A stretch of 32,000 bases of DNA from Akkermansia muciniphila ATCC BAA-835 (GCF_000020225.1 NC_010655.1:2100001-2132000), one strand, 5' to 3'. Counted from the stretch's first letter, positions 318 to 31,158 are shown. Numbers and translations: made by a program. The notes: a model not told the origin generated them from the letters alone.

Positions 318-3300
318 ATGAAGTTGCACCTCCCTTTAAGTCTTTTGTCCTCCCTGCTTGCCTGCATGGCTGCTGTTTCCTCACCGCATGCCGTTGCGGA
401 AACCTATACATGGCTGGGGGGGACGGTGGATGTTCATTTAAATACTAACTGGACTCCGGATTACGGCAGCAGCAACTGGTCGGCAACATGGGCCGGAACG
501 GCGACAAACAGCATGCGTTTTGATGCGGGTAGCATGACGGGGCAGGTCAAGGCTCTCCAGGCTTCTTTCAATACGCTTTCACTTGGGGGAATAACCGTTA
601 CGGATAATTCCGATGGATTCAGCGTTTCCAAAAGCAACGGCTCCAACCGCACCGTTAATTTACGTGATGGAGGAGAAGGGTATACGCTGTTTGACATAGG
701 CGGGGATTTTTCTCTGGGAGTTGCCAGCCAGGTATGGAACGGAGTTGTTTTCAACTCCAGCGCCCTGTTTAACATTGCCTCCGGCAAGACCATGAATATT
801 TACGGTGGTCTGGGAATGGCTGGAACGGGAGCCAGGACGATGACGGTGGGGACGGACGGTTTTGCGGGAACCCTTATCCTGAATACGGCTGCCCAGTCTT
901 CCATGACGGCTGATTGGGTCATTTCCCATGGGGCGACCGTTCAACTGAACAATGCCGCGGCTTTGGGGTCCGGATCGGTCAGCTTAAACGGCGGCAATAT
1001 AACGGCCCAGCACGATGCTGTTTATAACAATGCCCTGGCCGTGAGCGGTTCTTCCGGCATGAACGTGAATGCTGCCACGCGGTTTGCCAGTGTCAGCCTT
1101 TCCAATGCCGCTGTCCTGAACATGAACGGAGGGACGCTTGGCATTGCGAATGCCGGCGTTTTGACACTGGGTTCTTCAGGGACCATTACGGGGAATTTGA
1201 CGCTGGGAAACACGTCTCTCCTGAATTTTTCCGCTCTTCCGGCTTCCGGATCATATTTGCTTAATGTAACAGGAACGCTGACCGTGGGCAGTGAATTGCT
1301 TCTGGGGCAGGAAACGATGGAAGGCGTAGCCTGGACGGAGGGTTCCTACAGTCTGGTTCATGCGGGTTCCGTAGAGGGAGTCCCTGCCAGCTCTTTCGTT
1401 CTGGGCGACAATCTTCTGGGTTCATGGAGCACGGAAAACAATAATCTTACCCTGGTTGTGGAGCAGGTGGCTTTGCTTGAATGGAAAGGCGGCGACGGGA
1501 TATGGTCTGTAACTGCTCCGGCTTCTTCACCGTGGAAAAATGAAGGTGTGTACAATAATGCTTCCGGAGTGGTCATGGGAGATATTGACGGAAGTTCTCT
1601 GCAAACAGTAACCATTGATGGAGTTGTCTCTCCCTCAATCATGATGGTCCAGGCGGATACGACGGATTATGTGTGGAATGCCGCAGATGAAGGAGGTGCT
1701 CTGGAAGGCAGCGGTAATCTGGAGAAGACCGGCAGTGCCAAGCTGACCATTAATATGGATAATGCTGATTATGCCGGAAAGGTCATTTTGGGGGGTGGAA
1801 CGCTTGAAATGGGGAATGATGCCGCTTTAGGCACAGGTGATCTGGCATTTGACGGCGGTACCCTCCGGTATGGAACAGGGGTAACGGCGGATATTTCCGG
1901 GCAGATTTCCACAACGAGCAAAAGTTCCGTGAAGGTGGATACCAACGGTAATAACGTAAGCTGGGCTTCCGCGGATCATTACAAGGCTCTGAACTTGGAA
2001 AAGTCCGGGAACGGTGTGTTGACTCTCGGCGGCGCCGTGTATACGGGGGGCCTGACAGTAGATGAAGGAGGCGTGTCCATTACTTCCGGCAGTGTTCAAA
2101 CGAAGTTTTCTGCGGGAGTCACGGTAAATGCAGGAGGAACGCTTGCCATTTCCAGCGCCATTAACGGAATATCGACCGGAGACAACGCCAATATCGTCAT
2201 CAACGGCATGAGCGGAGCGGGGCGGATTGAGCTGGACAACCAGGCTGCCAAATCCCGTTTTTATATTTCCGGAGATAATTCTTCCTTTACCGGGGAATTG
2301 GTGGCGACCGGACTGAACAATAATCCGGGAAATACGAATGATGCCCGCGATCTTCAGTTTGCCACTGCTGCCAGTATGGGAAGAGGAACGGTAACCCTGA
2401 ATGGACGCGGGTTCTGGCTGGGAACCGCCAATTCGGCGGATACCGCCGTCATGGCAGCAATCAATGTTCTGGAGAAAGGTTCCTATCTGAACGGGGGAAG
2501 CGGAAATTCCTATTACTTTGGCGGGGCGTTTACCGGTTCCGGCACCATGACCACGGCTCTGGGCAATGCGTTCGCATATTTGACGGGAGATATGACCGGG
2601 TTCCAGGGAGCATTCTCCCACACGGGTGATTCCCTGTTTACCTGGGCATTCGGCAACAATACGGAGGCAGTTCTGAATGATGGAAAGCTTTTCGGGGATG
2701 GAGTGGTTTTGAAGGCTGATGGAGGGACAAGCCAGTTTAAATTCTCCTATACCAACGATATTATACTGATGAACGCCACTGTAGGCGCAGAAGGGGCCTT
2801 GAACGCCAGGGTGGAACAGGCCGGAACCGGAACGCTGGTGCTAACGCAGGACAATAGCGCGACGGGAACGCTCACCATTACCAGCGGCACGGTTCAGCTG
2901 GGCAATGGAGAGGTTTCCGGCTCCTGGACAGGGCAGATTACCGGAGCAGGGGCTCTGGTGGTGGACAGGTCTGCAGGTTCCTCTGCTCTGGAACTGAACT
3001 CCGCCAACGATTATCAGGGTGGAACTACGCTGAACGGCGGCACAGTGAAGGCGTTGGGCGCCGGTTCCTTGGGAACTGGCGATGTTTTCGTCAACGGCGG
3101 TTCCATCCTGGATATGAACGGACAGGCGATTGCCAATAATGTCGCTATTACCAAAGGAGGGCTGCAACATGCCGGGGCCTACGCCACGTCGGGCGGCGTA
3201 ACCGTAAATGCGGAGGCTGATTCCGGGGACATTGACCTGGGAGGCCTGTCCGGCGACAAAGTGGGGGGCATCAATACCACCACGGCGGGAACGGCCATTA

Positions 3301-6179
3301 CCGGCCTGACGGGAAATTTGACGCTGACGGGGAATAATGCCCTGCATGTGGGGGTGGAAAATACCACGTATGCTTCTGACGGAGACCAGAAAAGTCTGAT
3401 TCAGTTCAATGATGCGGCTACGGGGACTGTTTCCTTAGGCGGAGATTCTTCCGATCTCACGCTGCACATGGATATTGATACGGATATCCTGATTGCCATG
3501 CGCGAACTGGATTCTGTCGGTATCCTGCTGACAGACGGGACGATTACCGGATTGCCGGACAGCGGTCTGGTGGCGTGGCTCAACCAGCATCTTACGTTTA
3601 ATGCCACACTGGAAAGCCTGGGGTTCGGCATCCAGGGAGTGGATGGAGGAAACATTATCATTTCCGGAAGAACGGACCAGATTTACATTGCTTCCGTAGA
3701 CGGTTCCTCAGTGACGGAAATTCCGGCTTTGAATTCCTATGCCCAGGTGATTGTTGATAAGGATCTTTCTCTGAATTTTGATGTTCCCGCATCTAATACG
3801 GACAAGACCATCGTTCGTCATCTTTCCTCCGGCACCAGCGCTACTGGCAATCTGGCAGTGAATGTCGCCGGAGAAGGTTCCTTGAATATTGAACTGGCCA
3901 ACGATTTGGACGATTCCGTTTTTAACGGAAATCTTATCGTAAACGGAAACGGTGCGGACCTGGTCAAAACAGGAGAAAAGACGCTGGTATTGAATGGGAG
4001 TGTCAGTACATCCAATGCAGTGATTGCCAAAGAAGGCACACTGGTTCTGAACGGGAGCGTCAACAACATCGGCACGCTGGCTTTGGCCTCCGCTTCTGCA
4101 GATGCAATTGCGCGTACCGTGATTGGTGGGACTGTCACAGCCACTCTGTCGGATGAAGATGAAGGCGGTTCCCTGGAGATTGCTGCGGGGGGAACACTCA
4201 AGACCGCCGGAGATTCCGTCCTGGACCAGGCGACCTCCATTTCCGGAGCAGGGAGTTTGAATATTCAGGAAGGTTCCGCCCTCTCCCTGACGGGGAAAGC
4301 CGGCCTGTCCGGAACTTCCGTGACGCTGAACGGAACGCTGGGTCTGTCCGGGACTGGGGAAAAATCCATCCAGTCCCTCTCCGGTTCCGGAACGCTGGCG
4401 TTGAACGGCGGCACTCTGTCTGTCACTTCCGCTTCCGCCAGAAACGGTTCTTTCTCCGGTACGCTGGATGGAGAGGGACGTATTGACGTATCCGGCAGCG
4501 TAACCCAGGTAATGCAGACAGGAAGCTCTACGTATGACCTGGGCGTTCATGGAGGGGGGACGCTGGTATTAAAAGGCACTTCTGCCGCCCCTGCGCTTGA
4601 TTACCGTAATGTTGCAGTAGGTTCTGCCGGCACCCTGCGTATTGAAGCCATTGGGCATGAGGCCGGAGACTCCAATACCTCCTTAAACGTCGGCAGCATT
4701 GATTTTCAAAGCGGCTCTACGACGGAATTCGTTTATAATTTAAGTGCGTCTGATCCTTTCGGCTCCGCTATGCTGACGGCGGATTCCATCACCATTGGAA
4801 ATGGGGCGGGATTCTCTCTTGCCAACATGGAAGGCAACACGGGGCTGGGAACGTATGACAACCTGGACGGCGTGGTGCTGATGACAGCGGACACGATTGA
4901 CGGACTGACGGAGGGGGAATCCATATCCGTGGGGACTTCCGGCCTGTTTGCCGTTTATTACAAGGATGCGACCATGAGCCGGGAGGGCAATCATATTGTG
5001 CTGAATGCCACGGTGCAGCAGGACAATATTTTTACGCCTGCGGTGAATTCCCATAATTCCGGAGCAGGTTCCGAACTTCTGTGGGAGGCAAAAAATAATC
5101 TGGATGCCACTTCCCAGCTTGGGCAGGCGATGCATTCCATCAGCACCATGATTACGGGAGATAATCCCGACTTGGCGGGGGCATCCAGGGCTTTGGCAGC
5201 AGTGGCTGGGAGCACGGTCAACGCGCTGGGGACGGCACAGAGGGACGCCCTGCGCGACCAGATGGGCTGGATCAGGAACCGGACCACCCTCATGGGCGTC
5301 AACCCGGCCTACGTCAACGACGACCTCCCCCGCTTCCACATGTGGATGGAAGGCACGGGCTCCTACGCCAAGCTCGACACCCGCGGGGATGAAAGCGGCT
5401 ACCAGCTCACCACCTGGGGAGGCACGGTAGGCATGGACGCGGACCTCAGCGACCGCCTCACGGTGGGAGCGGCCTTCACGGCCGGCTACGGCGACCTGAC
5501 GGCCGGCGCGGCGGACAGCGCCGACGGGCACCTGGACAGCTACTACGCCAGCCTCTTCGGCCGCTACCAGGACAGGCGCTGGGCGCACACGCTCATCCTG
5601 ACGGGAGGGTGGAACGACGCGAAACTCAACCGTACGGTCAACTATGGGGAAGGAAGCTACGGGACGCAGGGAAGCACCAGCGGGTGGGGCTTTGGAGCGA
5701 TGTATGAACTCACCTACGACGTATACCTCAACGAAAACCGCAGCAGCGTGCTGCAGCCGCTGTTCAACGCCTCGGTGGTGACGACGCGGATGGACGGCTA
5801 TGAGGAAACGGGTGCGGGCAACGCGGGCCTGAACGTCGGCAGGCAGGACTGGACGACGGGGACGCTGGCGCTGGGCGGCCGGTGGATGGGCCTGGTGGGC
5901 AGCAACATCTTCGGACGAGAAGCGCTGGCGGAAATCCGAGTAAACGCGGCGCAGGACCTGGGAGACCGGAGAGGGGAAACGAACGTCTCTCTGCTGGGCA
6001 ACCCCGGCTTTGCGCAAAGCGTGAGGGGGGCGAAAGAGGGAACGACGGCGCTGCAGCTGGGAGCCGGACTGAGCGTGCCTGTAGGAACGAAGGGAACCAT
6101 CTACGTGAACGGGAACGCGGACATCCGTGACGGGTCCAGCGCACTGAACGGAAGCGTCGGCTACCGCTACGACTTCTAA
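318..6179 (+). CDS. Giant autotransporter outer-membrane protein (1953 aa): signal peptide, long beta-strand-repeat passenger, C-terminal autotransporter beta-barrel
   Basis: The N-terminus MKLHLPLSLLSSLLACMAAVSSPHAVA is signal-peptide-like. The Gly/Thr/Asn/Leu-rich passenger carries recurring units such as EKTGSAKLTINMDNADYAGKVILGGGTLEMG, EKSGNGVLTLGGAVYTGGLTV and GTLVLTQDNSATGTLTITSGTVQLG, typical of autotransporter-associated beta-strand repeats. The last ~280 aa (HMWMEGTGSYAKLD...GAAFTAGYGDL...SVGYRYDF) have alternating-pattern barrel strands and a terminal aromatic F. Confidence 0.93.
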   Translation: MKLHLPLSLLSSLLACMAAVSSPHAVAETYTWLGGTVDVHLNTNWTPDYGSSNWSATWAGTATNSMRFDAGSMTGQVKALQASFNTLSLGGITVTDNSDGFSVSKSNGSNRTVNLRDGGEGYTLFDIGGDFSLGVASQVWNGVVFNSSALFNIASGKTMNIYGGLGMAGTGARTMTVGTDGFAGTLILNTAAQSSMTADWVISHGATVQLNNAAALGSGSVSLNGGNITAQHDAVYNNALAVSGSSGMNVNAATRFASVSLSNAAVLNMNGGTLGIANAGVLTLGSSGTITGNLTLGNTSLLNFSALPASGSYLLNVTGTLTVGSELLLGQETMEGVAWTEGSYSLVHAGSVEGVPASSFVLGDNLLGSWSTENNNLTLVVEQVALLEWKGGDGIWSVTAPASSPWKNEGVYNNASGVVMGDIDGSSLQTVTIDGVVSPSIMMVQADTTDYVWNAADEGGALEGSGNLEKTGSAKLTINMDNADYAGKVILGGGTLEMGNDAALGTGDLAFDGGTLRYGTGVTADISGQISTTSKSSVKVDTNGNNVSWASADHYKALNLEKSGNGVLTLGGAVYTGGLTVDEGGVSITSGSVQTKFSAGVTVNAGGTLAISSAINGISTGDNANIVINGMSGAGRIELDNQAAKSRFYISGDNSSFTGELVATGLNNNPGNTNDARDLQFATAASMGRGTVTLNGRGFWLGTANSADTAVMAAINVLEKGSYLNGGSGNSYYFGGAFTGSGTMTTALGNAFAYLTGDMTGFQGAFSHTGDSLFTWAFGNNTEAVLNDGKLFGDGVVLKADGGTSQFKFSYTNDIILMNATVGAEGALNARVEQAGTGTLVLTQDNSATGTLTITSGTVQLGNGEVSGSWTGQITGAGALVVDRSAGSSALELNSANDYQGGTTLNGGTVKALGAGSLGTGDVFVNGGSILDMNGQAIANNVAITKGGLQHAGAYATSGGVTVNAEADSGDIDLGGLSGDKVGGINTTTAGTAITGLTGNLTLTGNNALHVGVENTTYASDGDQKSLIQFNDAATGTVSLGGDSSDLTLHMDIDTDILIAMRELDSVGILLTDGTITGLPDSGLVAWLNQHLTFNATLESLGFGIQGVDGGNIIISGRTDQIYIASVDGSSVTEIPALNSYAQVIVDKDLSLNFDVPASNTDKTIVRHLSSGTSATGNLAVNVAGEGSLNIELANDLDDSVFNGNLIVNGNGADLVKTGEKTLVLNGSVSTSNAVIAKEGTLVLNGSVNNIGTLALASASADAIARTVIGGTVTATLSDEDEGGSLEIAAGGTLKTAGDSVLDQATSISGAGSLNIQEGSALSLTGKAGLSGTSVTLNGTLGLSGTGEKSIQSLSGSGTLALNGGTLSVTSASARNGSFSGTLDGEGRIDVSGSVTQVMQTGSSTYDLGVHGGGTLVLKGTSAAPALDYRNVAVGSAGTLRIEAIGHEAGDSNTSLNVGSIDFQSGSTTEFVYNLSASDPFGSAMLTADSITIGNGAGFSLANMEGNTGLGTYDNLDGVVLMTADTIDGLTEGESISVGTSGLFAVYYKDATMSREGNHIVLNATVQQDNIFTPAVNSHNSGAGSELLWEAKNNLDATSQLGQAMHSISTMITGDNPDLAGASRALAAVAGSTVNALGTAQRDALRDQMGWIRNRTTLMGVNPAYVNDDLPRFHMWMEGTGSYAKLDTRGDESGYQLTTWGGTVGMDADLSDRLTVGAAFTAGYGDLTAGAADSADGHLDSYYASLFGRYQDRRWAHTLILTGGWNDAKLNRTVNYGEGSYGTQGSTSGWGFGAMYELTYDVYLNENRSSVLQPLFNASVVTTRMDGYEETGAGNAGLNVGRQDWTTGTLALGGRWMGLVGSNIFGREALAEIRVNAAQDLGDRRGETNVSLLGNPGFAQSVRGAKEGTTALQLGAGLSVPVGTKGTIYVNGNADIRDGSSALNGSVGYRYDF

Positions 6180-21090: not shown

Positions 21091-21631
21091 AGCCGGAGGA
21101 TTGCAAGGTGTTAACGCGCTGCCGGACAGCATGGGCCAGCATGTCCCGGCTGGCGGCCGTCATGGGGCGAAGGCTGACGGCAACGGTTGATCCGTCAGTC
21201 AGGCGGAGGTTCAGCCGTCCGCCTTCCCGGTCCGCGGAGCGAATCTGCTGCCAGAAGAACCATTGCATGGTGCGCTGCGTTCTCAGGAACGGCAGGATTT
21301 CCACTCCCACCGGGGTGACGATGACGGCCGCGTGTTTCAGGCAGCGGCTCCCCGCAGCCAGGCAGAGGGCGGCGGGAACAAGCGCCGCGGCCTGCATGGC
21401 CCACAGGGGGGCGGGCAAATACGGGGTAATTGTATCATATCCCGTGAGCTGGAGGAAAGCGGCAGTGGCTGCCAGAAGGAACCCCGCCGCCGTCAGTATG
21501 GCGCCTGACCGGTTCCGGGTGAAGCGCAACTCCCGTTTCCGGACGGGAATGTGCCGGATGTCCTCCACGCCCAGACCGGCCTGAACCGGACGGGGCGCGG
21601 AAGCGGGAAGATGGCGTTCAGGCTCCGGCAT
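21077..21631 (-). CDS. Hypothetical membrane protein (two TM helices plus a small soluble domain)
   Basis: The ATG at 21631 overlaps the upstream stop by 14 nt, and the stop overlaps the next ATG by 14 nt. The hydrophobic segments are AILTAAGFLLAATAAFLQL and LWAMQAAALVPAALCLAAG. Confidence 0.6.
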   Translation of the reverse strand: MPEPERHLPASAPRPVQAGLGVEDIRHIPVRKRELRFTRNRSGAILTAAGFLLAATAAFLQLTGYDTITPYLPAPLWAMQAAALVPAALCLAAGSRCLKHAAVIVTPVGVEILPFLRTQRTMQWFFWQQIRSADREGGRLNLRLTDGSTVAVSLRPMTAASRDMLAHAVRQRVNTLQSSGYGQA

Positions 21632-23003
21632 AGACGCCCGGGAGGATTTCCTTCGTTTCGTCGGAGTCGTTTTCCATCAGCAAGGTGCCCCGGAGAACGG
21701 CTCCGTCCTGGAAGTGGAAGCGGCCGCGCAGGGTCAGCTTGTCCATGCCTATCAGGGAGGGCAGGCCCAGCCCGTCCAGGGAATCCACCAGCTTGTACAG
21801 TTTGGAATCCAGGTCCACCACCGGGGTGTTGCCCTGCCGTTCCGGCGCCAGGGCCACGTTGCCGTGTTCATCCACGGCGATGGCGTCCGAACGGAGCAGG
21901 AACAGGTCGGAAGTGGTTTTGACGGGGAAGAAACGGGAACGCGGGACGTTGACGGCCCTGGCGCCGGGGAAGCATTCGATGCCCGCGCCCATGGCCGTTT
22001 CCAGCTGGTACACCGGGGCGGATTCCGGATCGCGGGGGTTGAGCGTCTTTTTATTACGGATCATGGGCAGCGGGAGTACGCCGCCGTTGGCGTCCAGAAT
22101 TTCCTTGAGGGCGTCCAGGCGTATCCAGAGCGTATTGGTGTTGAAATAGCGGTGCCTGGAAATGTTCTGGAATTCAGGAATGTCCTCATCCGGGCACTGG
22201 GCCACTTCCCGCAGAATCAACTGGCCGTCCGATTTCCTGACAGCCAGGTGGCCGCCTTTCCTGTCCGCCACCGTGCGGCGGGTGACTTCCATGACGAAGG
22301 GGGCGCCGCTTTCCGCAAACCAGCGGAGGAAGTTCATGTCAAGCTGGGCGCCCAGATTGTCGGAATTGGAGACAAAAGCGTATTTAACGCCATCCTCCAG
22401 CAGGCGGTCCAGCCAGCCGGACCCCAGCAGGGCCGGATACAGGTCCCCATGGCCTGGCGGGCACCATTCCAGCTCCGGCTGTTCCGGGCAGCTGGCCGGG
22501 GAGAGGCCGTCCGCCAGGATTTTGGGAACGCGGTTTTGCAGCAGCTCCACTTCGGCGCGGTCCGCAAAGCCGTCCGCCGCGTATTTTTCCAGGTAGGCCA
22601 GCGTGTCCGCGCTGGTGGAGAAAGAGTTCATCAGCAGAAGGCGCACAGGCGTGCCGGAGATGGAGCGCAGATGCTTCACCTGCCTGACGATCAAATCCAG
22701 GAACGTATCCTCTCCTTTTACTTTCAGCAGGCTTTTCGCTTTCTGGAGGCCCATGCTCGTGCCGAGGCCGCCGTTGAGCTTGATGCATACGCAACGGGAA
22801 ATCAGGTCCTTGTCCGCCGCGGGGGTGGAGGCCGTGATGTCCTGCCAGTCTTCCACCTGGTCGGCGGGCAGGATGTCCGTTTCCGGAATCATGCCGGAGT
22901 GGTTGGAAACAAGGGCTTCATAACAACGGGAGAAAGCGTTGACGGCCGCGGCTGAAACGCCGGCGGACTCCATCTTTTCCGCAAAAGGAGTGAACGTACT
23001 CAT
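21618..23003 (-). CDS. UTP--glucose-1-phosphate uridylyltransferase of the eukaryotic UDPGP (type 1) family
   Basis: IKLNGGLGTSMGLQKAKSLL is the UGP-type nucleotide-binding loop. The 461-aa length and overall layout match UDPGP-family enzymes rather than GalU. Confidence 0.87.
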   Translation of the reverse strand: MSTFTPFAEKMESAGVSAAAVNAFSRCYEALVSNHSGMIPETDILPADQVEDWQDITASTPAADKDLISRCVCIKLNGGLGTSMGLQKAKSLLKVKGEDTFLDLIVRQVKHLRSISGTPVRLLLMNSFSTSADTLAYLEKYAADGFADRAEVELLQNRVPKILADGLSPASCPEQPELEWCPPGHGDLYPALLGSGWLDRLLEDGVKYAFVSNSDNLGAQLDMNFLRWFAESGAPFVMEVTRRTVADRKGGHLAVRKSDGQLILREVAQCPDEDIPEFQNISRHRYFNTNTLWIRLDALKEILDANGGVLPLPMIRNKKTLNPRDPESAPVYQLETAMGAGIECFPGARAVNVPRSRFFPVKTTSDLFLLRSDAIAVDEHGNVALAPERQGNTPVVDLDSKLYKLVDSLDGLGLPSLIGMDKLTLRGRFHFQDGAVLRGTLLMENDSDETKEILPGVYAGA

Positions 23004-23101
23004 TGGCGGCTTTTGTACAAAATGCCCGGAGGAGGCTCAAGCATTATCAGCGTATCCGGAATGCCCGCGCGTTTTCTCTTTCTTGCGGGGACTGCTCCGG
23101 G

Positions 23102-23845
23102 TTATCTGGCTGCCGTCACCCGGATCCGCCGGTAGTCCGCCACCCATTGGGAACCGTCCCATAACTCATCTTTCAGGGAATCCTCCATTTCCTTGAAAAT
23201 CTGGATGCGCTGTTCTTCGCGGAGGTTGTTCAAGTCTTCCCGGAAGAATTGACACGCCCAGTTGCGCAGGCCGTCAGGACCGCCTTTCAGCGGCGTAGGG
23301 CGGTCAAATTCCTTCATTGTTTCCGGGCGGAGCCCGGCTTGTTCCAGAACGCTGCCGTATTCTTCCGCGGCGGGAAAGTAAAAACGCGTTGTGTACGGGA
23401 GGTTCCTGCGTTCCAGGGCTGTCCGAAAAGCTTCCCTGATGCGGAGAATATTGAGGTGGGCTCCGAATTCGCAGACCAGTTTCCCCTGCGGTTTCAGGAC
23501 GCGGGAAACGGCATTTAAGAGAGTCCCATGGTCCGGTATCCAATGGAGGGCCGCATTGGAGAAAACGATGTCAAATCTGTTGCGCCAGGGCATGAGGCGG
23601 GCGTCCAGCACGCGGAAGTCCATGCCGGGATAGAGCTGGCGGGCTTTTGCTATCATTTCCGGAGAGGAGTCCAGGCCGGTGACGGACGCCGATTTCTCCA
23701 GCAGAGCGTGCGTCAGCGTACCGGTTCCGCAGCCCAGGTCCAGAATGGACTGGTCTGGATTTTCCGGTACGCAGGAGAGCAGTTCCCTGCCGTATTCCGC
23801 GACAAAACCGTGTTTGTTTTCGTACCATTCAGCGTTCCAGTCCAT
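23102..23845 (-). CDS. Class I SAM-dependent methyltransferase (Tam/UbiE-like)
   Basis: Motif I is ILDLGCGTGTLT. Post-I is VTGLDSSPEMI, and the later DIVFSNAALHWI is also present. Length is 247 aa. Confidence 0.85.
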   Translation of the reverse strand: MDWNAEWYENKHGFVAEYGRELLSCVPENPDQSILDLGCGTGTLTHALLEKSASVTGLDSSPEMIAKARQLYPGMDFRVLDARLMPWRNRFDIVFSNAALHWIPDHGTLLNAVSRVLKPQGKLVCEFGAHLNILRIREAFRTALERRNLPYTTRFYFPAAEEYGSVLEQAGLRPETMKEFDRPTPLKGGPDGLRNWACQFFREDLNNLREEQRIQIFKEMEDSLKDELWDGSQWVADYRRIRVTAAR

Positions 23846-24000
23846 TACCTCTCCATCATAGGGAAAAAGGGGTTTTTTTTCAAGAAAGACCCTGTCTTTT
23901 TTTCATGGTATTTTTCCCGGAGGGTCTCTGTCCATTTCTCCGCGCCGTGCCGGGATTCTTCTTGCGTTGGCGGGCGGGAAATGGTTAAGATAAGCTTACT

Positions 24001-24849
24001 ATGAAAGCAACAGCCCTGTTCCTGGCGGCTTCCGCCCTGGCCGCGGTTTCCGCCGTCGCCTATGACGGATACGGTTATGACCCCCGGCCCGCGAGTTCCT
24101 ATAACAATACCATCAGCGGAGCGGCCCATATCGGCTATGATTCCCGGTATGCCTATAAAGACGTGGTGGCTTCCTCCCTGCTGAACCGCAGCGGCGTGTT
24201 TAACATCGGCGGCGAGCTGAACCTCAACCTGGCCAGAGACTGGAAGCAGGAAATCGGCGCGGAATACATGGCTTTCTGCGACGGGCTGCTGAGCGACAAG
24301 GACGCCTTTGACGCCAGCTGGAAGGCTGTCAAAGAGCTGTTCCCCAATCTTTCCTTCCGGGGCGGGTATGAGTTGAATTACGGCGGCCTCCCGGGGTATT
24401 TGAGCAAGCGCATGGGGAAGGCTCCCCATTCCCTCGCCCAGTCCGTCACGGCGGGGCTGGCGTATGACGATCCGGGCCACGGCTATTTTGGCTCCCTGGA
24501 TGTGCAGTACGGCTTTTACGGCATGACCGGCTGGCGTATTGACCTGAACGCGGGCAAGCGATGGAGCGGCCTGATTCATGAAAAGGTGGATTTGGAGCTG
24601 AGCGCCGGAACAGGTTATTCCTCCAGTTACTGGGGGCCCGGCGCAGCCGGGTTTGACCAGGTTAACATCAAACTGGCGGCTCCCGTGCGCGTAACGGGTG
24701 TGGACTCCAGCCGCGGGTTCCGGATTATTCCTTTCATCCAGCTTGACTGGGCGGGAAACACCCGTTCCGAAATCCGCCGCTACGCCGGCATGAACGCGAT
24801 TGAGGACTTCCGCATCCGTGTGGGCGTGGAAGCCGTTTACCGTTTTTAA
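24001..24849 (+). CDS. Predicted outer-membrane beta-barrel protein, function unknown
   Basis: The signal peptide is MKATALFLAASALAAVSAVA. The protein is Gly/Tyr/aromatic-rich with alternating strands and ends in the OMP-like signature ...RVGVEAVYRF. Confidence 0.7.
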   Translation: MKATALFLAASALAAVSAVAYDGYGYDPRPASSYNNTISGAAHIGYDSRYAYKDVVASSLLNRSGVFNIGGELNLNLARDWKQEIGAEYMAFCDGLLSDKDAFDASWKAVKELFPNLSFRGGYELNYGGLPGYLSKRMGKAPHSLAQSVTAGLAYDDPGHGYFGSLDVQYGFYGMTGWRIDLNAGKRWSGLIHEKVDLELSAGTGYSSSYWGPGAAGFDQVNIKLAAPVRVTGVDSSRGFRIIPFIQLDWAGNTRSEIRRYAGMNAIEDFRIRVGVEAVYRF

Positions 24850-24858
24850 GCGGCTGCT

Positions 24859-24888
24859 CCGCGGCCCTTTCACCGGGAAGGGCCGCGG
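24859..24888 (+). terminator. GC-rich hairpin 10 nt after the OMP gene stop (no U-tract)
   Basis: CCGCGGCCCTT (24859-24869) pairs perfectly with AAGGGCCGCGG (24878-24888), with an 8-nt loop. Confidence 0.35.
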
Positions 24889-24948
24889 AAGCGTTCCCCC
24901 TTTCCGGGGGCGCATGCCCCCTCCCCGGCTTCTCTTGAATCCCCTGCC

Positions 24949-25545
24949 ATGTTGAAAATGATTTTTCTGCTGGCCCGGCGCATGTTTATACGGCTGCTGC
25001 TGGTGCTGCTTCCGCTGGGCCTGTTTATGTTCCTGGCGCAGGCCATTCCCCTTTCCCCTCTGCAATCCCTGCTGGTGCTGGTTCCGGTGATTGCCTTTGA
25101 AGTGTGGCTCGTCATCAGGCATCTGCTGCCCGTCATGGGGGAGCTGGTGACCAAGACGCTGTATTCCTCCAATATTACTACGGATGAGGAAGTGCTGGTG
25201 GAGGCTTCCAGGCGCATGCTGAATTCCGGGGATCCCCAGGGCGCTCTGGAATTGCTGGAACGCTACCGGAAGGAGAATCCGGGGCTGGTGCGTTCCTGGC
25301 TCATGGAATCCAGCCTGCTGAACGATATGCGCCGGTACGCGGATTCCGTCAACGTCCTTCAGAAAGGACTGGAATACGGAGGGTGGCGCAAGGAGGACCG
25401 GGCTCTGTTCCTGTACAAGATAGGAGCCATTTACGAGTCCCAGCTCAATAACCCGGACAGGGCCCGGAAGTATTGGGAGGAAGCTGCGGATAAATATCCC
25501 GATACGGCCTATGGCCGCTCCGCACGGGACAAGGTTATGTTTTAA
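24949..25545 (+). CDS. Membrane-anchored TPR-like repeat protein
   Basis: The N-terminal part has two hydrophobic stretches (LLLVLLPLGLFMFLA, LLVLVPVIAFEVWLVI). The C-terminal half has helical-repeat sequence (GDPQGALELLERYRKENPG..., YKIGAIYESQLNNPDRARKYWEEAADKYPDTAYG). Confidence 0.7.
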   Translation: MLKMIFLLARRMFIRLLLVLLPLGLFMFLAQAIPLSPLQSLLVLVPVIAFEVWLVIRHLLPVMGELVTKTLYSSNITTDEEVLVEASRRMLNSGDPQGALELLERYRKENPGLVRSWLMESSLLNDMRRYADSVNVLQKGLEYGGWRKEDRALFLYKIGAIYESQLNNPDRARKYWEEAADKYPDTAYGRSARDKVMF

Positions 25546-25807
25546 TGCGGCTTTCCGTGAAGGGATGGCCATCCGGAATTTTTTCATTGCTTTAAAGAAC
25601 CGCGCGTGACGGAGGAATAAGTCTTTTTCCTTATTTTGCGCTGGGAAATATTCTTCAGGGGAGGCGCGATGCCATAGTGGTTCTTTCTGCTGAGCACGGG
25701 GTAATTAAGCATTGTATAGATCAATGTATGTGCTACGATTCTTCCGCATTTAATAATCATGCTTTGCCGTTTCCTTGGAACCGGATTAATTTTTCAACTA
25801 ACAGGAT

Positions 25808-26767
25808 ATGAGTAAAATAAGCCATATAAAATATATGGTGCTTTGCAATCTTCCCTACCGTTTGCGGGAAATCGCCGGACGGATTGCGAAGAAATGCAGG
25901 AGAAGGAAAGACCGGTCTCTTGAAGCGAAGCTGGAGGATATTCGCAATTTGCTTATTTATAACCACCCTATTTCCTCAGTTCCCCCGGCGACGGGGAAGT
26001 TGAGGCTCCTTCAGGACGGCAATACGGTTTTGCTGGCCCTTTTTGCGCGCAAATGCCGGGAAAACGGACTGCGGTACTGGCTGGATTACGGCACTTTGCT
26101 GGGGGCGGTAAGGCACAGGGGCTTTATTCCGTGGGATGATGATCTGGATGTGAGCATGATGAGGCCGGAGTTCGACCGCCTGCTGGAACTGCTTCCCGTT
26201 CTTTTCCCCCGTGAGGAAGGATTTACCTGGAACAGGCACGCCTTTCTGCAAATAGGATATGAGGGCACCCCCCTCAACCTTGATGTGTATCCCTATCATT
26301 TTTATGCAGAGAGTCTTTCATCTCCGGAACAGCATGAAAAGCTGGACAGGCTTTTGAGCGGATTTAAGAAAGACGTGGTGCTGGTAGGTTCCAGGATGAA
26401 CCTGACCGATGGGCAGGTTCAGGAGAAAATCCGCCAGGATATTCTGGAAGGAAGGGATGCTGCCGGGGAAGATGAAGCCCCCGGGATTTTTCTTTCTCCT
26501 GCCATTACGTTTACAAAAAACACGCACCTTTCCTATGAAACGTTCTTTCCCCTTGGCTCCGCAGAATTTGAGGGGATAATATTTTCCGTGCCCAACCATG
26601 CCCGCCAGTACCTGCAATTTTTTTACGGCGACTATCTGTCTTATCCGGAACGCATCCAGTTCAAGCATCCTTCCGTGAAGGCCATGGTGGAGAAGGTTCC
26701 CTTTGAGGCGGCGGTCAACCGTTTCATTGACGTTTACGGAAAGCGGATTGATGCGCTCATGCCATGA
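25808..26767 (+). CDS. LicD-family phospho-headgroup (CDP-alcohol dependent) transferase, copy 1
   Basis: The hallmark LicD motif is LRYWLDYGTLLGAVRHRGFIPWDDDLDVSM. The stop overlaps the next ATG (ATGA at 26764-26767). ATG 25835 is an alternative start. Confidence 0.88.
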   Translation: MSKISHIKYMVLCNLPYRLREIAGRIAKKCRRRKDRSLEAKLEDIRNLLIYNHPISSVPPATGKLRLLQDGNTVLLALFARKCRENGLRYWLDYGTLLGAVRHRGFIPWDDDLDVSMMRPEFDRLLELLPVLFPREEGFTWNRHAFLQIGYEGTPLNLDVYPYHFYAESLSSPEQHEKLDRLLSGFKKDVVLVGSRMNLTDGQVQEKIRQDILEGRDAAGEDEAPGIFLSPAITFTKNTHLSYETFFPLGSAEFEGIIFSVPNHARQYLQFFYGDYLSYPERIQFKHPSVKAMVEKVPFEAAVNRFIDVYGKRIDALMP

Positions 26768-28119
26768 AAACGGTTATTACTTACGGAACCTTTGATTTGC
26801 TGCACACGGGGCACGTGAATCTGCTGAAGAGAGCCCGGAAACTGGGGGACCGGCTCATCGTCGGCGTGACTACGGACAGTTACGACCAGAGCCGCGGCAA
26901 GCTGAATGTCATGGAGAGCCTGGAGGAACGCATGGAAAATGTGCGGAAAACCGGTCTGGCGGATCTCATTATTAAGGAAGAACTAGAAGGGCAGAAGATT
27001 CATGACATACGGAAGTACGGGGCGGATGTTTTTGTGATTGGCTCCGACTGGTCGGGGAAATTTGACTATCTTCGCGATTATTGTGAGGTGGTTTACCTGG
27101 AACGCACCAAGGGCGTTTCTTCAACAGACCTCCGTTCCGCCCGGAATCCCATTGTATATATGGGAATTGCAGGTCACGGGCGCATAGCGGGCCGTTTTCT
27201 CCGGGAGTCCAAATATGTCAGCAATATTGAAATAACAGCCGTTTTCGGAAGGAATGAGGAGAAAGTCCGCCGTTTTGCAGAGTTCCACGCTCTGCTGGAA
27301 TATTATACGGAATACGAACAGTTTCTGGACCGGGTTCATGCCGTTTATATTGCCGTCCCCCATCATCTCCATTATGAAATGGCCAGGAGGGCCCTGTTGC
27401 GGGGGAAGCATGTATTGTGCGAGAAGCCTCTTGCCCTTGCCCGGGAGGAGGCGGAAGAGCTGTTCCGGCTGGCCGAAGAGAAAGGAGTCGTTTTGCTGGA
27501 AGCCCTTAAAACTGCGTTTTGTCCGGCTTTCCAGCAACTGACCAGTTTGGCGGGGAGCGGCATTATTGGTTCCATCAAGGCGGTGGACGCCACGTTTACC
27601 AAGCTGATAGAGGATGAGGCTGCCAGGGAGTATGACCCCATGCAGGCCGGAGGCGCCTGGACGGAACTGGGTTCCTATCCCGCCTTTGTCATTGGGAAGC
27701 TTCTGGGAACCGAGCCCCGCAGGATTCGTTTTGTTACTTGCAGAAAGCCTCATACGGGCGTGGACGTGTTCACGCGCGCGGAATTTCTTTATTCCAATGC
27801 AGTAGCCACCGCCACGGCAGCCATAGGAGCCAAGCAGGAAGGGGACTTGTGCATTACCGGAACGGAGGGGTATATTTATGTGCCGGCGCCTTGGTGGAAG
27901 ACGGAGATGTTTGAAGTGCGGTTTGAGGATGCCCGGCTCAACAGGAAATATTTTGCCAATTTTGAAGGGGATGGGCTGCGTTATGAACTTGGCGCGTTTT
28001 TGCGCCTGATTCATGGCTGCCAGCACGGCAACCGTCTTTTGACCCGTGAGGATTCCGTGTTCATGGCTGATGTTGCCTCCCGTTTCAGGAGAGGGTATTG
28101 CGTGGAAGAGATCAGTTAG
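26764..28119 (+). CDS. Fusion protein: TagD-like (HxGH-type) cytidylyltransferase (aa 1-~130) + Gfo/Idh/MocA-family NAD(P) oxidoreductase (aa ~135-451)
   Basis: The N-terminal part is MKTVITYGTFDLLHTGHVNLLKRARKLGD...RTKGVSSTDLR, carrying the HxGH and RTxGISTT motifs of glycerol-3-phosphate cytidylyltransferases. The C-terminal part is VYMGIAGHGRIAGRF...AVYIAVPHHLHYEMARRALLRGKHVLCEKPLAL, a Rossmann fold plus EKP motif. Confidence 0.85.
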   Translation: MKTVITYGTFDLLHTGHVNLLKRARKLGDRLIVGVTTDSYDQSRGKLNVMESLEERMENVRKTGLADLIIKEELEGQKIHDIRKYGADVFVIGSDWSGKFDYLRDYCEVVYLERTKGVSSTDLRSARNPIVYMGIAGHGRIAGRFLRESKYVSNIEITAVFGRNEEKVRRFAEFHALLEYYTEYEQFLDRVHAVYIAVPHHLHYEMARRALLRGKHVLCEKPLALAREEAEELFRLAEEKGVVLLEALKTAFCPAFQQLTSLAGSGIIGSIKAVDATFTKLIEDEAAREYDPMQAGGAWTELGSYPAFVIGKLLGTEPRRIRFVTCRKPHTGVDVFTRAEFLYSNAVATATAAIGAKQEGDLCITGTEGYIYVPAPWWKTEMFEVRFEDARLNRKYFANFEGDGLRYELGAFLRLIHGCQHGNRLLTREDSVFMADVASRFRRGYCVEEIS

Positions 28120-28216: not shown

Positions 28217-29266
28217 TTATTTCTTCCGAAATGGGGAGAATCTGTTCAGTATGGAGGTGTTCCATTCCACAAAGGACTGGAGTGTAGGAACCGGAATGTT
28301 TAATTGCTCCGCCAGATAGCAAATGGGTTTGGTGCCCAGAGGAACATCTTCCGTAAAGTAACGGGAAGAAAAATCGGGAATCCATCCTTGTTTCCGGCGG
28401 GTCATGGGAGCTTTAACCCCATGGAATGCCGGAATAGATTGAATCTTTTTAGTCAACTCTACGGCATTTCTGGATTCATAATAATCTAGGACGGGAATGA
28501 TGTCCTTTCCGATTTCCATGCCGGGACAACAGGAACAGAGGGTCAGAAGTTCTCTATCTGCCTGGATGTACAACTCACTGGCCTCCTCCGTCCATTCTTC
28601 ATAAAAAAGAAACTGCTTGTCATAAAACGTTCCTTCCCTGTAGTGGCGAAACAGACTCATGCAGCGGGAAGGGTGGAGAAGGGGGTTGGAGTTGGTCAAC
28701 AGAAAGGGCCAGGGAGAAGAAAGATGAGTCAGAGGAGTGTCAAATAAGGTTTCCAACATGGCGGACCAATGTTCGGCATTATTTCCTGGGGCTACCCATA
28801 TCCTGTTAAGAGGGCGGCTTCCGAGAATGGAGACGGAATGTCCATATTCCTGCGTCCGACAAATCAGGGGAACCTTGTATATTCCCATCAGGCTGACGGT
28901 GGAAGTCCAAGAGGGATCTTCTGCCATCTCCATGACCTCCGGAGTACCGGGTACAATAACGAGCCCCTGTTCTCGATGCAGATAGGGTTTAATGCGGTGG
29001 CATACCTCCCGAATGCCAAAGCGGGGAACCGCCACCAGCACAAGGTTGCAGTCTTTCAATGTTTCCGGATGGTTGCTGATATGCCCTAGGGGAGCATGGT
29101 GCGTAGTACCGTTTGGAAAGATAGCGGAGAGACTTTTTCCCCATTGATTAGGGTTTCGGGTTAGGATATTGACATGTAGGCCGCGTGTACCCAGCCATCC
29201 CGCCATGGCATGGGCCAGGTTGCCGCCGCCGCAAATGCCTATGACAGGAGTGGAAATTGTATTCAT
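28217..29266 (-). CDS. NAD(P)-dependent octopine/nopaline (opine) dehydrogenase-family protein
   Basis: The N-terminal Rossmann motif is VIGICGGGNLAHAMAGWLGTRG. The ~350-aa size and the motif LLTNSNPLLHPSR resemble the opine-dehydrogenase family. The family call rests on my recognition only. The ATG shares one nt with the upstream stop (TGATG). Confidence 0.68.
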   Translation of the reverse strand: MNTISTPVIGICGGGNLAHAMAGWLGTRGLHVNILTRNPNQWGKSLSAIFPNGTTHHAPLGHISNHPETLKDCNLVLVAVPRFGIREVCHRIKPYLHREQGLVIVPGTPEVMEMAEDPSWTSTVSLMGIYKVPLICRTQEYGHSVSILGSRPLNRIWVAPGNNAEHWSAMLETLFDTPLTHLSSPWPFLLTNSNPLLHPSRCMSLFRHYREGTFYDKQFLFYEEWTEEASELYIQADRELLTLCSCCPGMEIGKDIIPVLDYYESRNAVELTKKIQSIPAFHGVKAPMTRRKQGWIPDFSSRYFTEDVPLGTKPICYLAEQLNIPVPTLQSFVEWNTSILNRFSPFRKK

Positions 29267-31158
29267 CAGGAGGCTGAAGTGGAACAGGATGAAAAAGGGG
29301 ATTCTCCGTTAGTGGGACAAGTAGAAGACGGTTCCGAGCCGGTTTCTGCATGCATGGCCCGGACCAGGGCATCATTGTCGGTTGCGTCTCTGACGGCGAT
29401 ACGGATGAATTCTCTGCCTTCAAATCCTTTTTTCCGGCTACAGTCCTTAACAAGGATGGAGTGGTTTTTCAGCAGAAGGCCGGTCAGGGAGCGGGCTTTC
29501 ATGGGGGGCTTGACCTCGCACATGAAATAGTTTGCCTGGGAGGGGAAAACGTTCAGGAAAGGCACGCGGGAGAGTTTCTGCATGAAGCGGTCCCGTTCCT
29601 TCATGAAACGGTTGCACGCGCGCACGTAGGATTGCTCGTATTTCCCGAAGATTTGCATGTAGAATTCCGCGATGGAATTGATGTTCCAGATGGAAACGTC
29701 TTTTTTTATCCATGCCGCCAATTCCCTGTCTGCGGAGGCCAGAACACCCAGGCGGAGGCCCGGAACGCCGTAGGATTTGGAAATGCTTTTTACCACGGCC
29801 AGGTGGGGATATTCTTCCAGGATGCCGTCTTTCAGCAGCGTATTGTCCGGCATTCCGCAGGAGAAGTCTACAAAGGATTCATCCACGATCAGGCGGATGC
29901 CGCGGGTTTTTGTCCACAGGCAGAGGCGTAGCACATCGCCTTTCGGCAGGAAGAATCCGGAAGGGTTTCCCGGATTGACGAGGAGCAGGGTACCGATGTC
30001 TTTCCCGGAAAAGAATTCCATCAGGTCGTCCGCCGTATAAGTGAAATTCCGGGAAGCGGTATGGAAGGGAACCACCATATCCGGTTTCACCCGGTTGGGG
30101 TATTCTTCAAAGGTAGGGTAGATGACCCCCATTTTCCCTTCCAGGCGGGACATGAGCGCCTTAATGAGTTCCGCCGCGCCGTTGCCGATGCAGATGTATT
30201 CCTGGCTGATGCCGAAGTATTTTGCCGCCAGCAGGCTGTTGACTCTCATTCCGGACGGGTATTCCCTCACTAGGCGTTCAAAATTCGCCTTGAGTTCGGA
30301 CATGAGGCGTTTGTTGGGGAAATAGGGATTGACCAGGTAACAGAAATCCCTGATGCGGGGATAGCGCCAGTAGCCTCCGTACCGGGATTCCATCAGGCGC
30401 AGGTGTTCTTCCCTGTCCGGGGTGAATATGGAGGCTGCGATGTCCAGATCCTGGATGTCGTCTATTTCATACCATGCTTCGCCGCCGAGGCGCAGCGCCT
30501 TGATTTCCGGCTTGTCCAGCAGGGCGATGACCCGCAGCACCTGTTCGTAATATTCATTATTGCCCAGGGCTTTGCTGTAGGCTGTAAGAAAGGGGACGTA
30601 ATGGGTCCGGGAGAATTCCCTGCTGAATTTGTAAATATTGACTGTTTTAAAATATTCCGTCTTTTTCTTGTAGGAGAATTTGCTGCCGGGAATGAATTGC
30701 CTGATGTTGTCGTCTTCATCCAGAGTGACGACCGTGCCGTCCATCCAGCTTTCAAATTTGGCGACGAGAGCAAGGCTGGGGTAGGGATGGCGGAGCAGGG
30801 CATCAATAACGGAGTCTTCAAAAATCAGGTCGGATTCAAAGAGCAGCGTATCGTCCTGAAGCAGGTGTTCCTTGGCCAGGTACAGGGAATAAATATTGTT
30901 GGTGCTGGCGTACAGGGGATTGTCCACATATTCCACAGGGGTGGAAATGTCCAGCTGGGAAAGGAAGGTTTTGAGTTTTTCCCCCTCATAACCCGTAACA
31001 ATCACGATTTTTTCCAGAGACGGGGAAAGGCGGTCCAATTGTCTCATCATGCGTTCTATCAGCGTCACTCCGTTGACCTGGATCATGCACTTGGTATTGT
31101 TCCGGGTGAGCGCTCCCAGTCTTTTTCCCATTCCGGCCGCTAAAATGATCGCCTGCAT
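29266..31158 (-). CDS. Fusion protein: LicC-like sugar/alcohol-phosphate nucleotidyltransferase (aa 1-~245) + CobD/HisC-like class I/II PLP enzyme (aa ~260-600)
   Basis: The N-terminal part is MQAIILAAGMGKRLG...TKCMIQVNG...NNIYSLYL...AWYEIDDIQDL, which parallels the CTP:phosphocholine cytidylyltransferase LicC. The C-terminal part has DFCYLVNPYFP, LLLVNPGNPSG, the PLP-lysine context VKSISKSYGVPGLRLGV (K461) and FIRIAVR. It ends in a Ser/Thr/Pro-rich 25-aa tail. Confidence 0.85.
   Translation of the reverse strand: MQAIILAAGMGKRLGALTRNNTKCMIQVNGVTLIERMMRQLDRLSPSLEKIVIVTGYEGEKLKTFLSQLDISTPVEYVDNPLYASTNNIYSLYLAKEHLLQDDTLLFESDLIFEDSVIDALLRHPYPSLALVAKFESWMDGTVVTLDEDDNIRQFIPGSKFSYKKKTEYFKTVNIYKFSREFSRTHYVPFLTAYSKALGNNEYYEQVLRVIALLDKPEIKALRLGGEAWYEIDDIQDLDIAASIFTPDREEHLRLMESRYGGYWRYPRIRDFCYLVNPYFPNKRLMSELKANFERLVREYPSGMRVNSLLAAKYFGISQEYICIGNGAAELIKALMSRLEGKMGVIYPTFEEYPNRVKPDMVVPFHTASRNFTYTADDLMEFFSGKDIGTLLLVNPGNPSGFFLPKGDVLRLCLWTKTRGIRLIVDESFVDFSCGMPDNTLLKDGILEEYPHLAVVKSISKSYGVPGLRLGVLASADRELAAWIKKDVSIWNINSIAEFYMQIFGKYEQSYVRACNRFMKERDRFMQKLSRVPFLNVFPSQANYFMCEVKPPMKARSLTGLLLKNHSILVKDCSRKKGFEGREFIRIAVRDATDNDALVRAMHAETGSEPSSTCPTNGESPFSSCSTSAS

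Follow-up and report, generated by a model that had tools for sequence, protein, structure and literature searches.

The closest described relatives of the system treated here are of two kinds. In the capsule loci of Actinobacillus pleuropneumoniae (CpsB/CpsC) and Neisseria meningitidis (CshA/CshB and CszA/CszB), a gene for a glycerol-3-phosphate (G3P) cytidylyltransferase of the TagD type adjoins a gene of the LicD family; CpsB is a stand-alone TagD-type transferase, CpsC is a LicD-family G3P transferase/polymerase, and cytidine diphosphate (CDP)-glycerol has been demonstrated as donor of the LicD-family enzyme (PMC11666461, PMC3647402). The second kind couples NAD(P)H-dependent redox chemistry and activation by cytidine triphosphate (CTP) and feeds a phosphotransferase, as in TarI/TarJ and the fused Bcs1 (CDP-ribitol), Mnp1/Mnp2 (CDP-mannitol) and HS5.18/HS5.17 (CDP-6-D-glucitol) (PMC10918830). 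The known CDP-alditol routes (ribitol, mannitol, glucitol and methylerythritol) rely on IspD-type transferases (PF01128) and dedicated reductases, which for mannitol and glucitol are short-chain dehydrogenases/reductases (SDR, PF01370) (PMC10918830). This article describes a gene of Akkermansia muciniphila ATCC BAA-835, located in a 32,000-nucleotide stretch of the chromosome (NC_010655.1:2100001-2132000, hereafter the window, from whose first nucleotide positions are counted), in which a TagD-type cytidylyltransferase is joined to an oxidoreductase of the Gfo/Idh/MocA (GFO) family and overlaps the gene of a LicD-family phosphotransferase, LicD-1. The TagD-GFO protein presents the known logic of redox, CTP activation and phosphotransfer in a new combination of protein families, the GFO half having a putative role in it, and the fusion probably supplies a CDP-glycerol-like donor for the phosphate-linked decoration of a surface glycan.

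As in the Actinobacillus and Neisseria loci, a TagD-type gene adjoins a LicD-family gene. Unlike the fusion, the TagD-type transferases of those loci are encoded by stand-alone genes of 399 nucleotides and have no oxidoreductase partner, and their loci are group 2 capsule loci with TagF-like polymerases, which the Akkermansia island lacks. TarI/TarJ and Bcs1 likewise pair an IspD-type transferase with a reductase of the medium-chain (MDR) or SDR type. The Akkermansia protein (P0001) has no PF01128 match and no SDR or MDR domain, and membership in this class was rejected; its transferase belongs to PF01467, its redox half to PF01408/PF22725, and the redox half is dispensable in many lineages. 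The sequence-only reading that preceded this analysis had already set the fusion apart from Bcs1 and TarIJ on the basis of its protein families, and the domain assignments agree with it. The architecture is non-canonical because the characterized CDP-alditol routes use IspD-type transferases and dedicated reductases.

The fusion is encoded on the plus strand at positions 26764-28119 as a single open reading frame (ORF) of 451 codons with zero internal stops. Three Pfam domains cover it and the HTGH, RTKGVSST and EKP motifs were located (Table 1), in keeping with the earlier description of a cytidylyltransferase domain followed by a full Gfo/Idh/MocA dehydrogenase with the EKP motif. The AlphaFold2 model of the fusion has a mean predicted local distance difference test score (pLDDT) of 94.1 and a predicted template modeling score (pTM) of 0.85; a Foldseek search found no two-domain TagD plus GFO architecture among solved structures. 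An ORF of 1356 nucleotides without stops is also present in six other Akkermansia loci (L009-L013, L017), with protein identities of 78-96%, and the protein cluster P0002 (98% identity to the fusion) holds 1800 member sequences. At least 8000 candidates, all at E <= 0.001, were returned by a word-indexed protein search; among the matches listed, 120 of the 120 homologues of about 450 residues carry the three Pfam domains, and the truncated ones the two N-terminal domains. An exhaustive search of 50%-identity representatives matched 448 proteins at E <= 1e-30. According to automatic clusters the architecture is present in Verrucomicrobiota, Bacillota, Pseudomonadota, Actinomycetota and Bacteroidota, to which source names add Anoxybacillus and Elusimicrobia. 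Proteins with the three domains number in the thousands and come from five phyla or more. An assembly artefact or frameshift, which the sequence-only reading had kept in view, is ruled out by the uninterrupted 451-codon ORF in seven Akkermansia genomes and by the thousands of homologues. The fusion is real and widespread and no characterized member of it was found; literature searches found no paper describing a TagD-GFO fusion, and there is no characterized CDP-polyol synthase built from the TagD-type and Gfo/Idh/MocA families.

The translational coupling to LicD-1 that had been noticed from the sequence was read as a four-nucleotide ATGA overlap and is conserved in seven Akkermansia genomes. 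In L009-L013 and L017 the last nucleotide of the LicD ORF is 8004 and the first of the fusion 8001, and a LicD gene lies directly upstream of the fusion in 6 of the 6 other Akkermansia loci. Loci that are unrelated, for example L019 and L033, have the overlap too.

Residues 1-124 align end to end with solved G3P cytidylyltransferases, namely those of S. aureus (2b7l, E 2e-35) and B. subtilis (1coz, E 1.2e-32); ethanolamine-phosphate enzymes appeared at E 5e-13 and choline-phosphate enzymes at 6e-7 only. Residues H14, H17, R44, K46, D95, W96, R114 and T115 are near-invariant among 168 fusion proteins, H14 and H17 together being present in 164 of them and gaps accounting for the remainder. The HxGH motif reads HTGH and the RTxGISTT motif reads RTKGVSST. 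The N-domain is 56-88% identical across all representative fusion lineages, and its ratio of nonsynonymous to synonymous substitution rates (dN/dS) is about 0.04 among seven Akkermansia orthologues. By its sequence, this domain is an intact TagD-type cytidylyltransferase.

The fusion shares with TagD/TarD (1coz/1n1d, 2b7l) the HxGH motif, the D-W pair and RTxGxSST, and it has R and K at positions 44 and 46, where TagD has two lysines. TagD/TarD proteins are stand-alone and of about 130 residues, whereas the fusion adds an oxidoreductase of 320 residues, and there are differences within the transferase itself. In an alignment to solved TagD, R44-G45-K46 stands at the K-x-K of TagD and is followed by one extra residue; the K44R replacement is constant throughout the fusion family and does not occur in stand-alone TagD. 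Lys44 and Lys46 of TagD reportedly contact the phospho-glycerol (1N1D). The RYVD motif is replaced by TGLAD throughout the fusions, and the tryptophan eight residues after it (W74) is a leucine here and a tyrosine in most fusions; from structures of CCT and GCT, RYVD is presumably part of the dimer interface and the tryptophan presumably lines the alcohol pocket. Stand-alone TagD proteins keep the canonical RYVD and W both beside LicD (L018, L019) and beside TagF (L026, L028), and thus the N-domain signature tracks the fusion and not the partner transferase. The RYVD/W74 change could go with a different quaternary structure, with another specificity or with the two combined, and an altered phospho-alcohol specificity of the fusion-type N-domain is possible judging from these residues.

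The oxidoreductase half has the features expected of its family: the Gly-rich Rossmann motif, the EKP lysine, the acid-x-x-x-Tyr pair and the two-domain fold. A HMMER alignment to the dimeric dihydrodiol dehydrogenase 2o48 places K221 on the lysine of CEKP and E301/Y305 (TELGSY) on LDLGIY, and the EKP motif aligns with 4had also; these are the catalytic residues of 2o48, Lys97, Asp176 and Tyr180. By Foldseek, the GFO half reaches target-normalized TM scores of 0.83-0.89 to 4had, 3rc1 (KijD10), 2o48 and 3e9m, and for 4had, KijD10 and 2o48 the identity is about 26%. KijD10 (a thymidine diphosphate-sugar 3-ketoreductase), 2o48 (dihydrodiol/D-xylose dehydrogenase) and the uncharacterized 4had share with it the fold, the EKP lysine and the acid-x-x-x-Tyr pair; unlike it, they are not fused to a nucleotidyltransferase and use Asp as the acid in place of Glu, and the motif PAPWWKT is peculiar to the subfamily of the GFO half. 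No named NCBIfam equivalog was reached by the GFO half; xylose 1-dehydrogenase came nearest, scoring 81 bits where 350 are required. In the comparison of the seven Akkermansia orthologues the GFO half shows a dN/dS of about 0.12, close to three times the rate of the N-domain; it is under purifying selection in Akkermansia and about three times less constrained than the N-domain. The clade of the Akkermansia protein, with members in several phyla at no less than 55% identity, retains every cofactor and catalytic motif, and the polar residues of this intact clade (R140, R144, H200, H203, K249, R288 and K357) are kept in the Akkermansia protein. By its sequence the GFO half is structurally complete, with the cofactor motif and the Lys/Glu/Tyr catalytic set intact, and sequence and model together suggest that it is likely active in Akkermansia.

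Conservation of the oxidoreductase is not general in the family. Of the 168 full-length fusions sampled, a set rich in close relatives, 128 have the complete signature G134/G137/G139, E220-K221-P222, E301 and Y305; of the 51 representatives of the fusion at 50% identity, only about a dozen keep it. In the remaining representatives the lysine, the acid and the tyrosine are gone, often together with the Gly motif, and identity in the GFO half drops to 15-30%. The transferase retains 56-88% identity in spite of these losses, and the redox step is therefore not generally needed to form its substrate. A quick maximum-likelihood tree of 96 GFO domains, many of its forks weak, indicates at least three independent losses. 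The strongly degenerate GFO domains belong to TagD-fused proteins or to pieces of such proteins; almost all stand-alone GFO proteins (about 320-335 residues) and forms with other fusion partners retain the catalytic set. Zero N-domain positions switch consistently between lineages with live and dead GFO domains, from which the substrate of the transferase would seem independent of the redox step. A catalytically dead oxidoreductase, which together with a strictly G3P-specific transferase the sequence-only reading had named as fatal to its proposal, is in this way the state of many other fusion lineages and not what the motifs of the Akkermansia protein indicate.

The surroundings of the gene were compared in 80 metagenome loci fetched with a GFO-GDPD profile, a set in which lineages are unevenly sampled. 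A TagD-GFO gene occurs in 70 of them, and a GDPD gene or domain in 48 of these 70 and in 30 of the 42 TagD-GFO loci that are flanked on either side by 3 kb or more, both GDPD counts being inflated because the query itself contains GDPD. LicD or TagF lies within 6 kb in 37 of the 42 well-flanked loci. Minimal pairs, with no further pathway gene nearby, consist of the fusion and a TagF-like gene in Anoxybacillus or a LicD gene in alphaproteobacterial and Elusimicrobia metagenome-assembled genomes (MAGs), in polysaccharide loci. Stand-alone TagD occupies the LicD-adjacent position in L018 and L019, and a stand-alone GFO of the same subfamily lies beside a LicC-like transferase and LicD in L105 and L106. 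About 25 loci share an extended cassette in which LicD, TagD-GFO, two xylose-isomerase-like triosephosphate isomerase (TIM)-barrel genes (PF01261), GFO-GDPD and LicD follow one another; searches of solved structures gave no informative relative for the two TIM-barrel proteins. In L032 (6133-7977) an AAA_21 ATPase and RloB-like pair that looks like a defence-type OLD/Abi module interrupts the glycan cassette between TagD-GFO and GFO-GDPD.

By Pfam, longer relatives have the architectures TagD-TagD-GFO, Metallophos-TagD-GFO, Metallophos-TagD-GFO-GDPD, TagD-GFO-GDPD, GFO-GDPD, GFO-Metallophos and GFO-GDPD-LicD. The GFO catalytic set is intact in the multi-domain relatives P0124 (1240 residues, Metallophos-TagD-GFO-GDPD), P0123, P0129, P0126, P0208 and P0122, except for a Tyr-to-His change in P0208. 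Point losses occur in twelve TagD-GFO copies (Y305S in ten, K221N in two) and a second, intact GFO is present in the locus in 12 of 12 cases; as the twelve copies probably represent about two independent events, this is weak support that GFO activity matters. In L015 (6008-9332) and L016, which are Lachnospiraceae MAGs, the order is LicD, class V aminotransferase and TagD-GFO, and the catalytic Lys, acid and Tyr of the GFO domain are all replaced (signature GGSESPPL). L080 has intact GFO domains together with a class V aminotransferase.

The overall reading favoured here, that the two-domain enzyme makes a CDP-activated phospho-alcohol donor for the co-translated LicD-1, has about an even chance of being right. 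The N-domain would convert CTP and glycerol phosphate, or a close C3 analogue, to CDP-glycerol, and LicD-1 would move the glycerol-phosphate group onto a surface glycan. The GFO half would be an active accessory enzyme of the same pathway that interconverts dihydroxyacetone phosphate (DHAP) and glycerol phosphate beside the active site of the transferase, and would feed the transferase as GDPD domains may do in related cassettes. Triose-phosphate/glycerol-phosphate redox is the best guess for its substrate and follows a logic of shared metabolites: the product of GDPD is sn-glycerol-3-phosphate and TagD uses G3P, which would place the GFO half at the same node. The recurrent fusion or adjacency of this GFO subfamily to GDPD points to G3P. 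In the dead-GFO clade, the aminotransferase of the cassette could handle C2 of DHAP another way, and intact GFO versus class V aminotransferase fits two alternative treatments of the C2 of a triose phosphate. The evidence favours glycerol-phosphate chemistry over a new alditol or cyclitol. The sequence-only reading had suggested that the product could differ from CDP-glycerol, which is not supported; the other way lean the match to 2b7l and 1coz, the association with GDPD, the stand-alone TagD beside LicD, the GFO half that is dispensable in many lineages and the precedent of CpsC, a LicD-family enzyme experimentally established to use CDP-glycerol from a stand-alone TagD-type enzyme (PMC11666461).

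Several observations weigh against this assignment. The N-domain scores 113.6 bits with TIGR01518, the NCBI TagD equivalog, and does not reach the cut-off of 165.4, and with the K44R, W74 and RYVD differences from stand-alone TagD its specificity could differ. The GFO catalytic residues are missing in most of the 50%-identity representative lineages, where the redox step is dispensable, and to our knowledge no Gfo/Idh/MocA enzyme acts on DHAP, G3P or trioses. GpsA was found in the genome and no GDPD was, so that a dedicated G3P-forming reductase would be redundant here. Two published analyses of Akkermansia lipooligosaccharide (LOS) mention no glycerol, phosphocholine, phosphoethanolamine or ribitol, and no glycerol phosphate is among their findings; the paper on the cps1 locus gives no composition of the capsular polysaccharide. 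Finally, the TIM-barrel genes and second GFO of the roughly 25 extended cassettes hint at a ketose or polyol chemistry richer than one triose reduction.

Three other explanations were weighed. In one, the GFO half would be a non-catalytic scaffold in Akkermansia too, one that replaces the lost TagD dimer interface or docks LicD, the protein being simply the only TagD of the genome. With this agree the loss of the catalytic residues, and often of the Gly motif, in most representative lineages beside a well-conserved N-domain, the restriction of the three or more independent losses to TagD-fused forms, the replacement in all fusions of the RYVD motif, presumably part of the dimer interface, the absence of another TagD-like gene from the genome, and the about threefold faster evolution of the GFO half. 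Against a scaffold, the Akkermansia protein and its whole clade keep all cofactor and catalytic motifs, along with the polar residues of the intact clade; a dN/dS of 0.12 denotes purifying selection, and the point-inactivated copies always occur with an intact paralogue. For Akkermansia a scaffold role is considered rather unlikely. It is also unlikely, slightly more so in our estimate, that the order of the reactions is reversed, the N-domain making CDP-glycerol from housekeeping G3P and the GFO half then oxidizing C2 (to CDP-dihydroxyacetone) or inverting it (to the enantiomeric CDP-glycerol), before LicD-1 transfers the tailored C3 phosphate. G3P is already supplied by GpsA, KijD10, which is a ketoreductase of nucleotide-linked sugars, is among the nearest structures of the GFO half (TM 0.87-0.88), and the confident two-domain model fits a fixed tandem arrangement; the intact GFO and class V aminotransferase of L080 resemble the classic pairing of a dehydrogenase with a transaminase, and the characterized routes to CDP-mannitol and CDP-glucitol start with cytidylylation and only then reduce the ketose, by that point linked to CDP (PMC10918830). 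Against this order, a substrate such as G3P or DHAP more easily explains that GFO-GDPD proteins without TagD retain the catalytic set, and the GFO of the aminotransferase clade is dead, so that there the keto substrate cannot come from that domain.

The proposal closest to the sequence-only reading, a one-polypeptide synthase of a CDP-alditol or CDP-cyclitol other than CDP-glycerol whose GFO half would reduce erythrose-4-phosphate, a pentulose-5-phosphate or a hexose phosphate, or process an inositol derivative, is judged improbable. It would make sense of the fusion-specific signature of the N-domain (R44-G45-K46, TGLAD for RYVD, Y or L for W74) and of its score under the TagD equivalog cut-off; the best named matches of the GFO half are xylose 1-dehydrogenase and inositol 2-dehydrogenase, and the stand-alone GFO with a LicC-like transferase beside LicD (L105, L106) fits as well. 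The two PF01261 genes and second GFO of the extended cassettes are reminiscent of gene sets for inositol or ketose interconversion. On the other hand, the N-domain matches G3P-specific enzymes at E 2e-35, and its matches to choline- or ethanolamine-phosphate enzymes reach only 1e-7 to 1e-13; the GDPD association speaks for G3P, live- and dead-GFO lineages differ consistently at no N-domain residue, and the Akkermansia island contains no kinase, isomerase or TIM-barrel gene. Whatever the route, the claim that the donor made by the fusion is not ordinary CDP-sn-3-glycerol, being instead the enantiomeric CDP-glycerol, CDP-dihydroxyacetone or another CDP-polyol, is regarded as doubtful, though with a real minority chance.

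Returning to the reading in which the fusion feeds a glycerol-phosphate donor to LicD-1, the gene belongs in Akkermansia to an island of five genes: LicD-1, the TagD-GFO fusion, an octopine-dehydrogenase-like gene, a LicC-like nucleotidyltransferase fused to a pyridoxal phosphate (PLP) enzyme, and LicD-2 (Table 1). The genome is a single contig of 2,664,102 bp, of which the window covers 2,100,001-2,132,000; LicD-1 and LicD-2 are its only two LicD genes and the fusion its only TagD-like gene. The fraction of G plus C in the island is 0.48-0.54, against 0.56-0.65 in the flanks (by genes, 0.50-0.54 for the island and 0.57-0.62 for the flanks), and returns to about 0.59 past window position 32.6 kb. 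No tRNA or obvious mobile-element gene was found at the island borders, and promoter/terminator and tRNA scans were uninformative. In a family-level sample, the fusion is present in 3 of the 7 other species of the genus and in 0 of 73 genomes of 19 other genera of the family; for this reason it is an accessory trait in Akkermansia and was probably acquired horizontally. Membership in the cps1 capsule locus was rejected, as cps1 lies at 2.527-2.553 Mb (PMC13343947) and the window starts at 2.100 Mb.

The fusion and the two minus-strand genes face each other tail to tail, and LicD-2 points away from the latter two. The octopine-dehydrogenase-like gene is part of this second, convergent module and lies outside the operon of the fusion. 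The module may yield a CDP-amino-alcohol product, possibly opine-modified. It resembles the pneumococcal Gtp1-3 set (CDP-2-glycerol), to which it may be homologous. In the PDB the 630-residue fusion matches 6oux (E 2.8e-44, residues 271-603) and LicC 1jyk (E 9e-13, residues 2-129); its identification as a PntC-AEPT phosphonate enzyme was set aside, the serine/threonine-phosphate decarboxylase-like 6oux being the best solved relative and 6pd1 not among the matches, while the genome was not searched for phosphoenolpyruvate mutase. The second module is present in most, not all, Akkermansia loci, and L013 has another LicD and a TagD fragment instead.

Around the island, a 580-residue minus-strand ORF (23845-25587) was considered as a divergent membrane partner and rejected: its composition, rich in Q, H, G, R and P, is unlike that of a protein, it has no family, is fragmented in sister species and is almost certainly spurious. 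The genes in this place are on the plus strand, one of unknown function and one for a TPR protein (Table 1). Just upstream of the island (21618-23845, minus strand) a eukaryote-type UDP-sugar pyrophosphorylase (PF01704, E 2e-119) adjoins a class I S-adenosylmethionine (SAM) methyltransferase, and the pair is syntenic in other Akkermansia loci. A glycogen-branching-enzyme gene comes after the island. At 318-6179 (plus strand) the window encodes an autotransporter of 1953 residues, which has PATR repeats and, at its C-terminus, a beta-domain (PF03797, E 4e-40).

Table 1. Features of the TagD-GFO gene, the Akkermansia island and a related cassette. Positions are those of the window unless a locus or residues are named; TPR, tetratricopeptide repeat.
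Feature	Position	Strand	Details
Unknown gene, upstream of LicD-1	24001-24849	+	282 aa
TPR protein gene, upstream of LicD-1	24949-25545	+	
LicD-1, LicD-family phosphotransferase	25808..26767	+	Pfam LicD E 5.3e-31; presumed user of CDP-activated donor
ATGA start/stop overlap, LicD-1/fusion	26764..26767	+	LicD-1 TGA inside gccATGAaa, ATG = fusion start
TagD-type cytidylyltransferase domain	26764..27138	+	residues 1-125
CTP_transf_like (PF01467)	residues 5-125		Pfam E 6.6e-21, 75.3 bits (cut-off 21)
HTGH motif	26803-26814	+	residues 14-17
R44-G45-K46	26893-26901	+	
RTKGVSST motif	27103-27126	+	residues 114-121
Gfo/Idh/MocA oxidoreductase half	27151..28119	+	residues 130-451
GFO_IDH_MocA (PF01408)	residues 133-245		Pfam E 1.1e-24, 87.9 bits (cut-off 24)
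GFO_IDH_MocA_C3 (PF22725)	residues 256-371		Pfam E 3.9e-9
Gly-rich motif GIAGHGRIA	27163-27189	+	G134, G137, G139
EKP motif	27421-27429	+	E220-K221-P222
ELGSY	27664-27678	+	E301...Y305
PAPWWKT	27883-27903	+	GFO subfamily motif
Octopine/opine-dehydrogenase-like gene	28217..29266	-	PF02317 E 5.5e-31; PDB octopine dehydrogenase 3iqd/3c7a E 1e-18
LicC-like nucleotidyltransferase fused to CobD/serine-phosphate-decarboxylase-like PLP enzyme	29266..31158	-	630 aa; PF12804 E 1.7e-11, PF00155 E 1.8e-28
LicD-2	31594..32610, past window end (L008:1594-2610)	+	Pfam LicD E 8.5e-27
Extended cassette	L033:3626-10686		also e.g. L036, L040, L043, L054, L087

The gut symbiont A. muciniphila has been studied intensively, and the definition of its surface glycans has only just begun. 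The island holds the only two LicD genes of the genome and two different fused CDP-activating enzymes, and no published LOS structure has a matching substituent; once identified, the product would fill in a surface epitope that is so far missing and probably varies between strains. A single series of assays would provide the annotation for thousands of genes that at present carry the label "Gfo/Idh/MocA oxidoreductase" or the label "glycerol-3-phosphate cytidylyltransferase". The redox half, repeatedly turned into a pseudo-enzyme, offers a clean natural case of why dead domains persist. If the donor were indeed other than CDP-sn-3-glycerol, a surface decoration linked by a phosphodiester and so far undescribed would exist in Akkermansia and in thousands of other bacteria, and it would be the work of an enzyme class, TagD-type plus Gfo/Idh/MocA, that has no characterized member.

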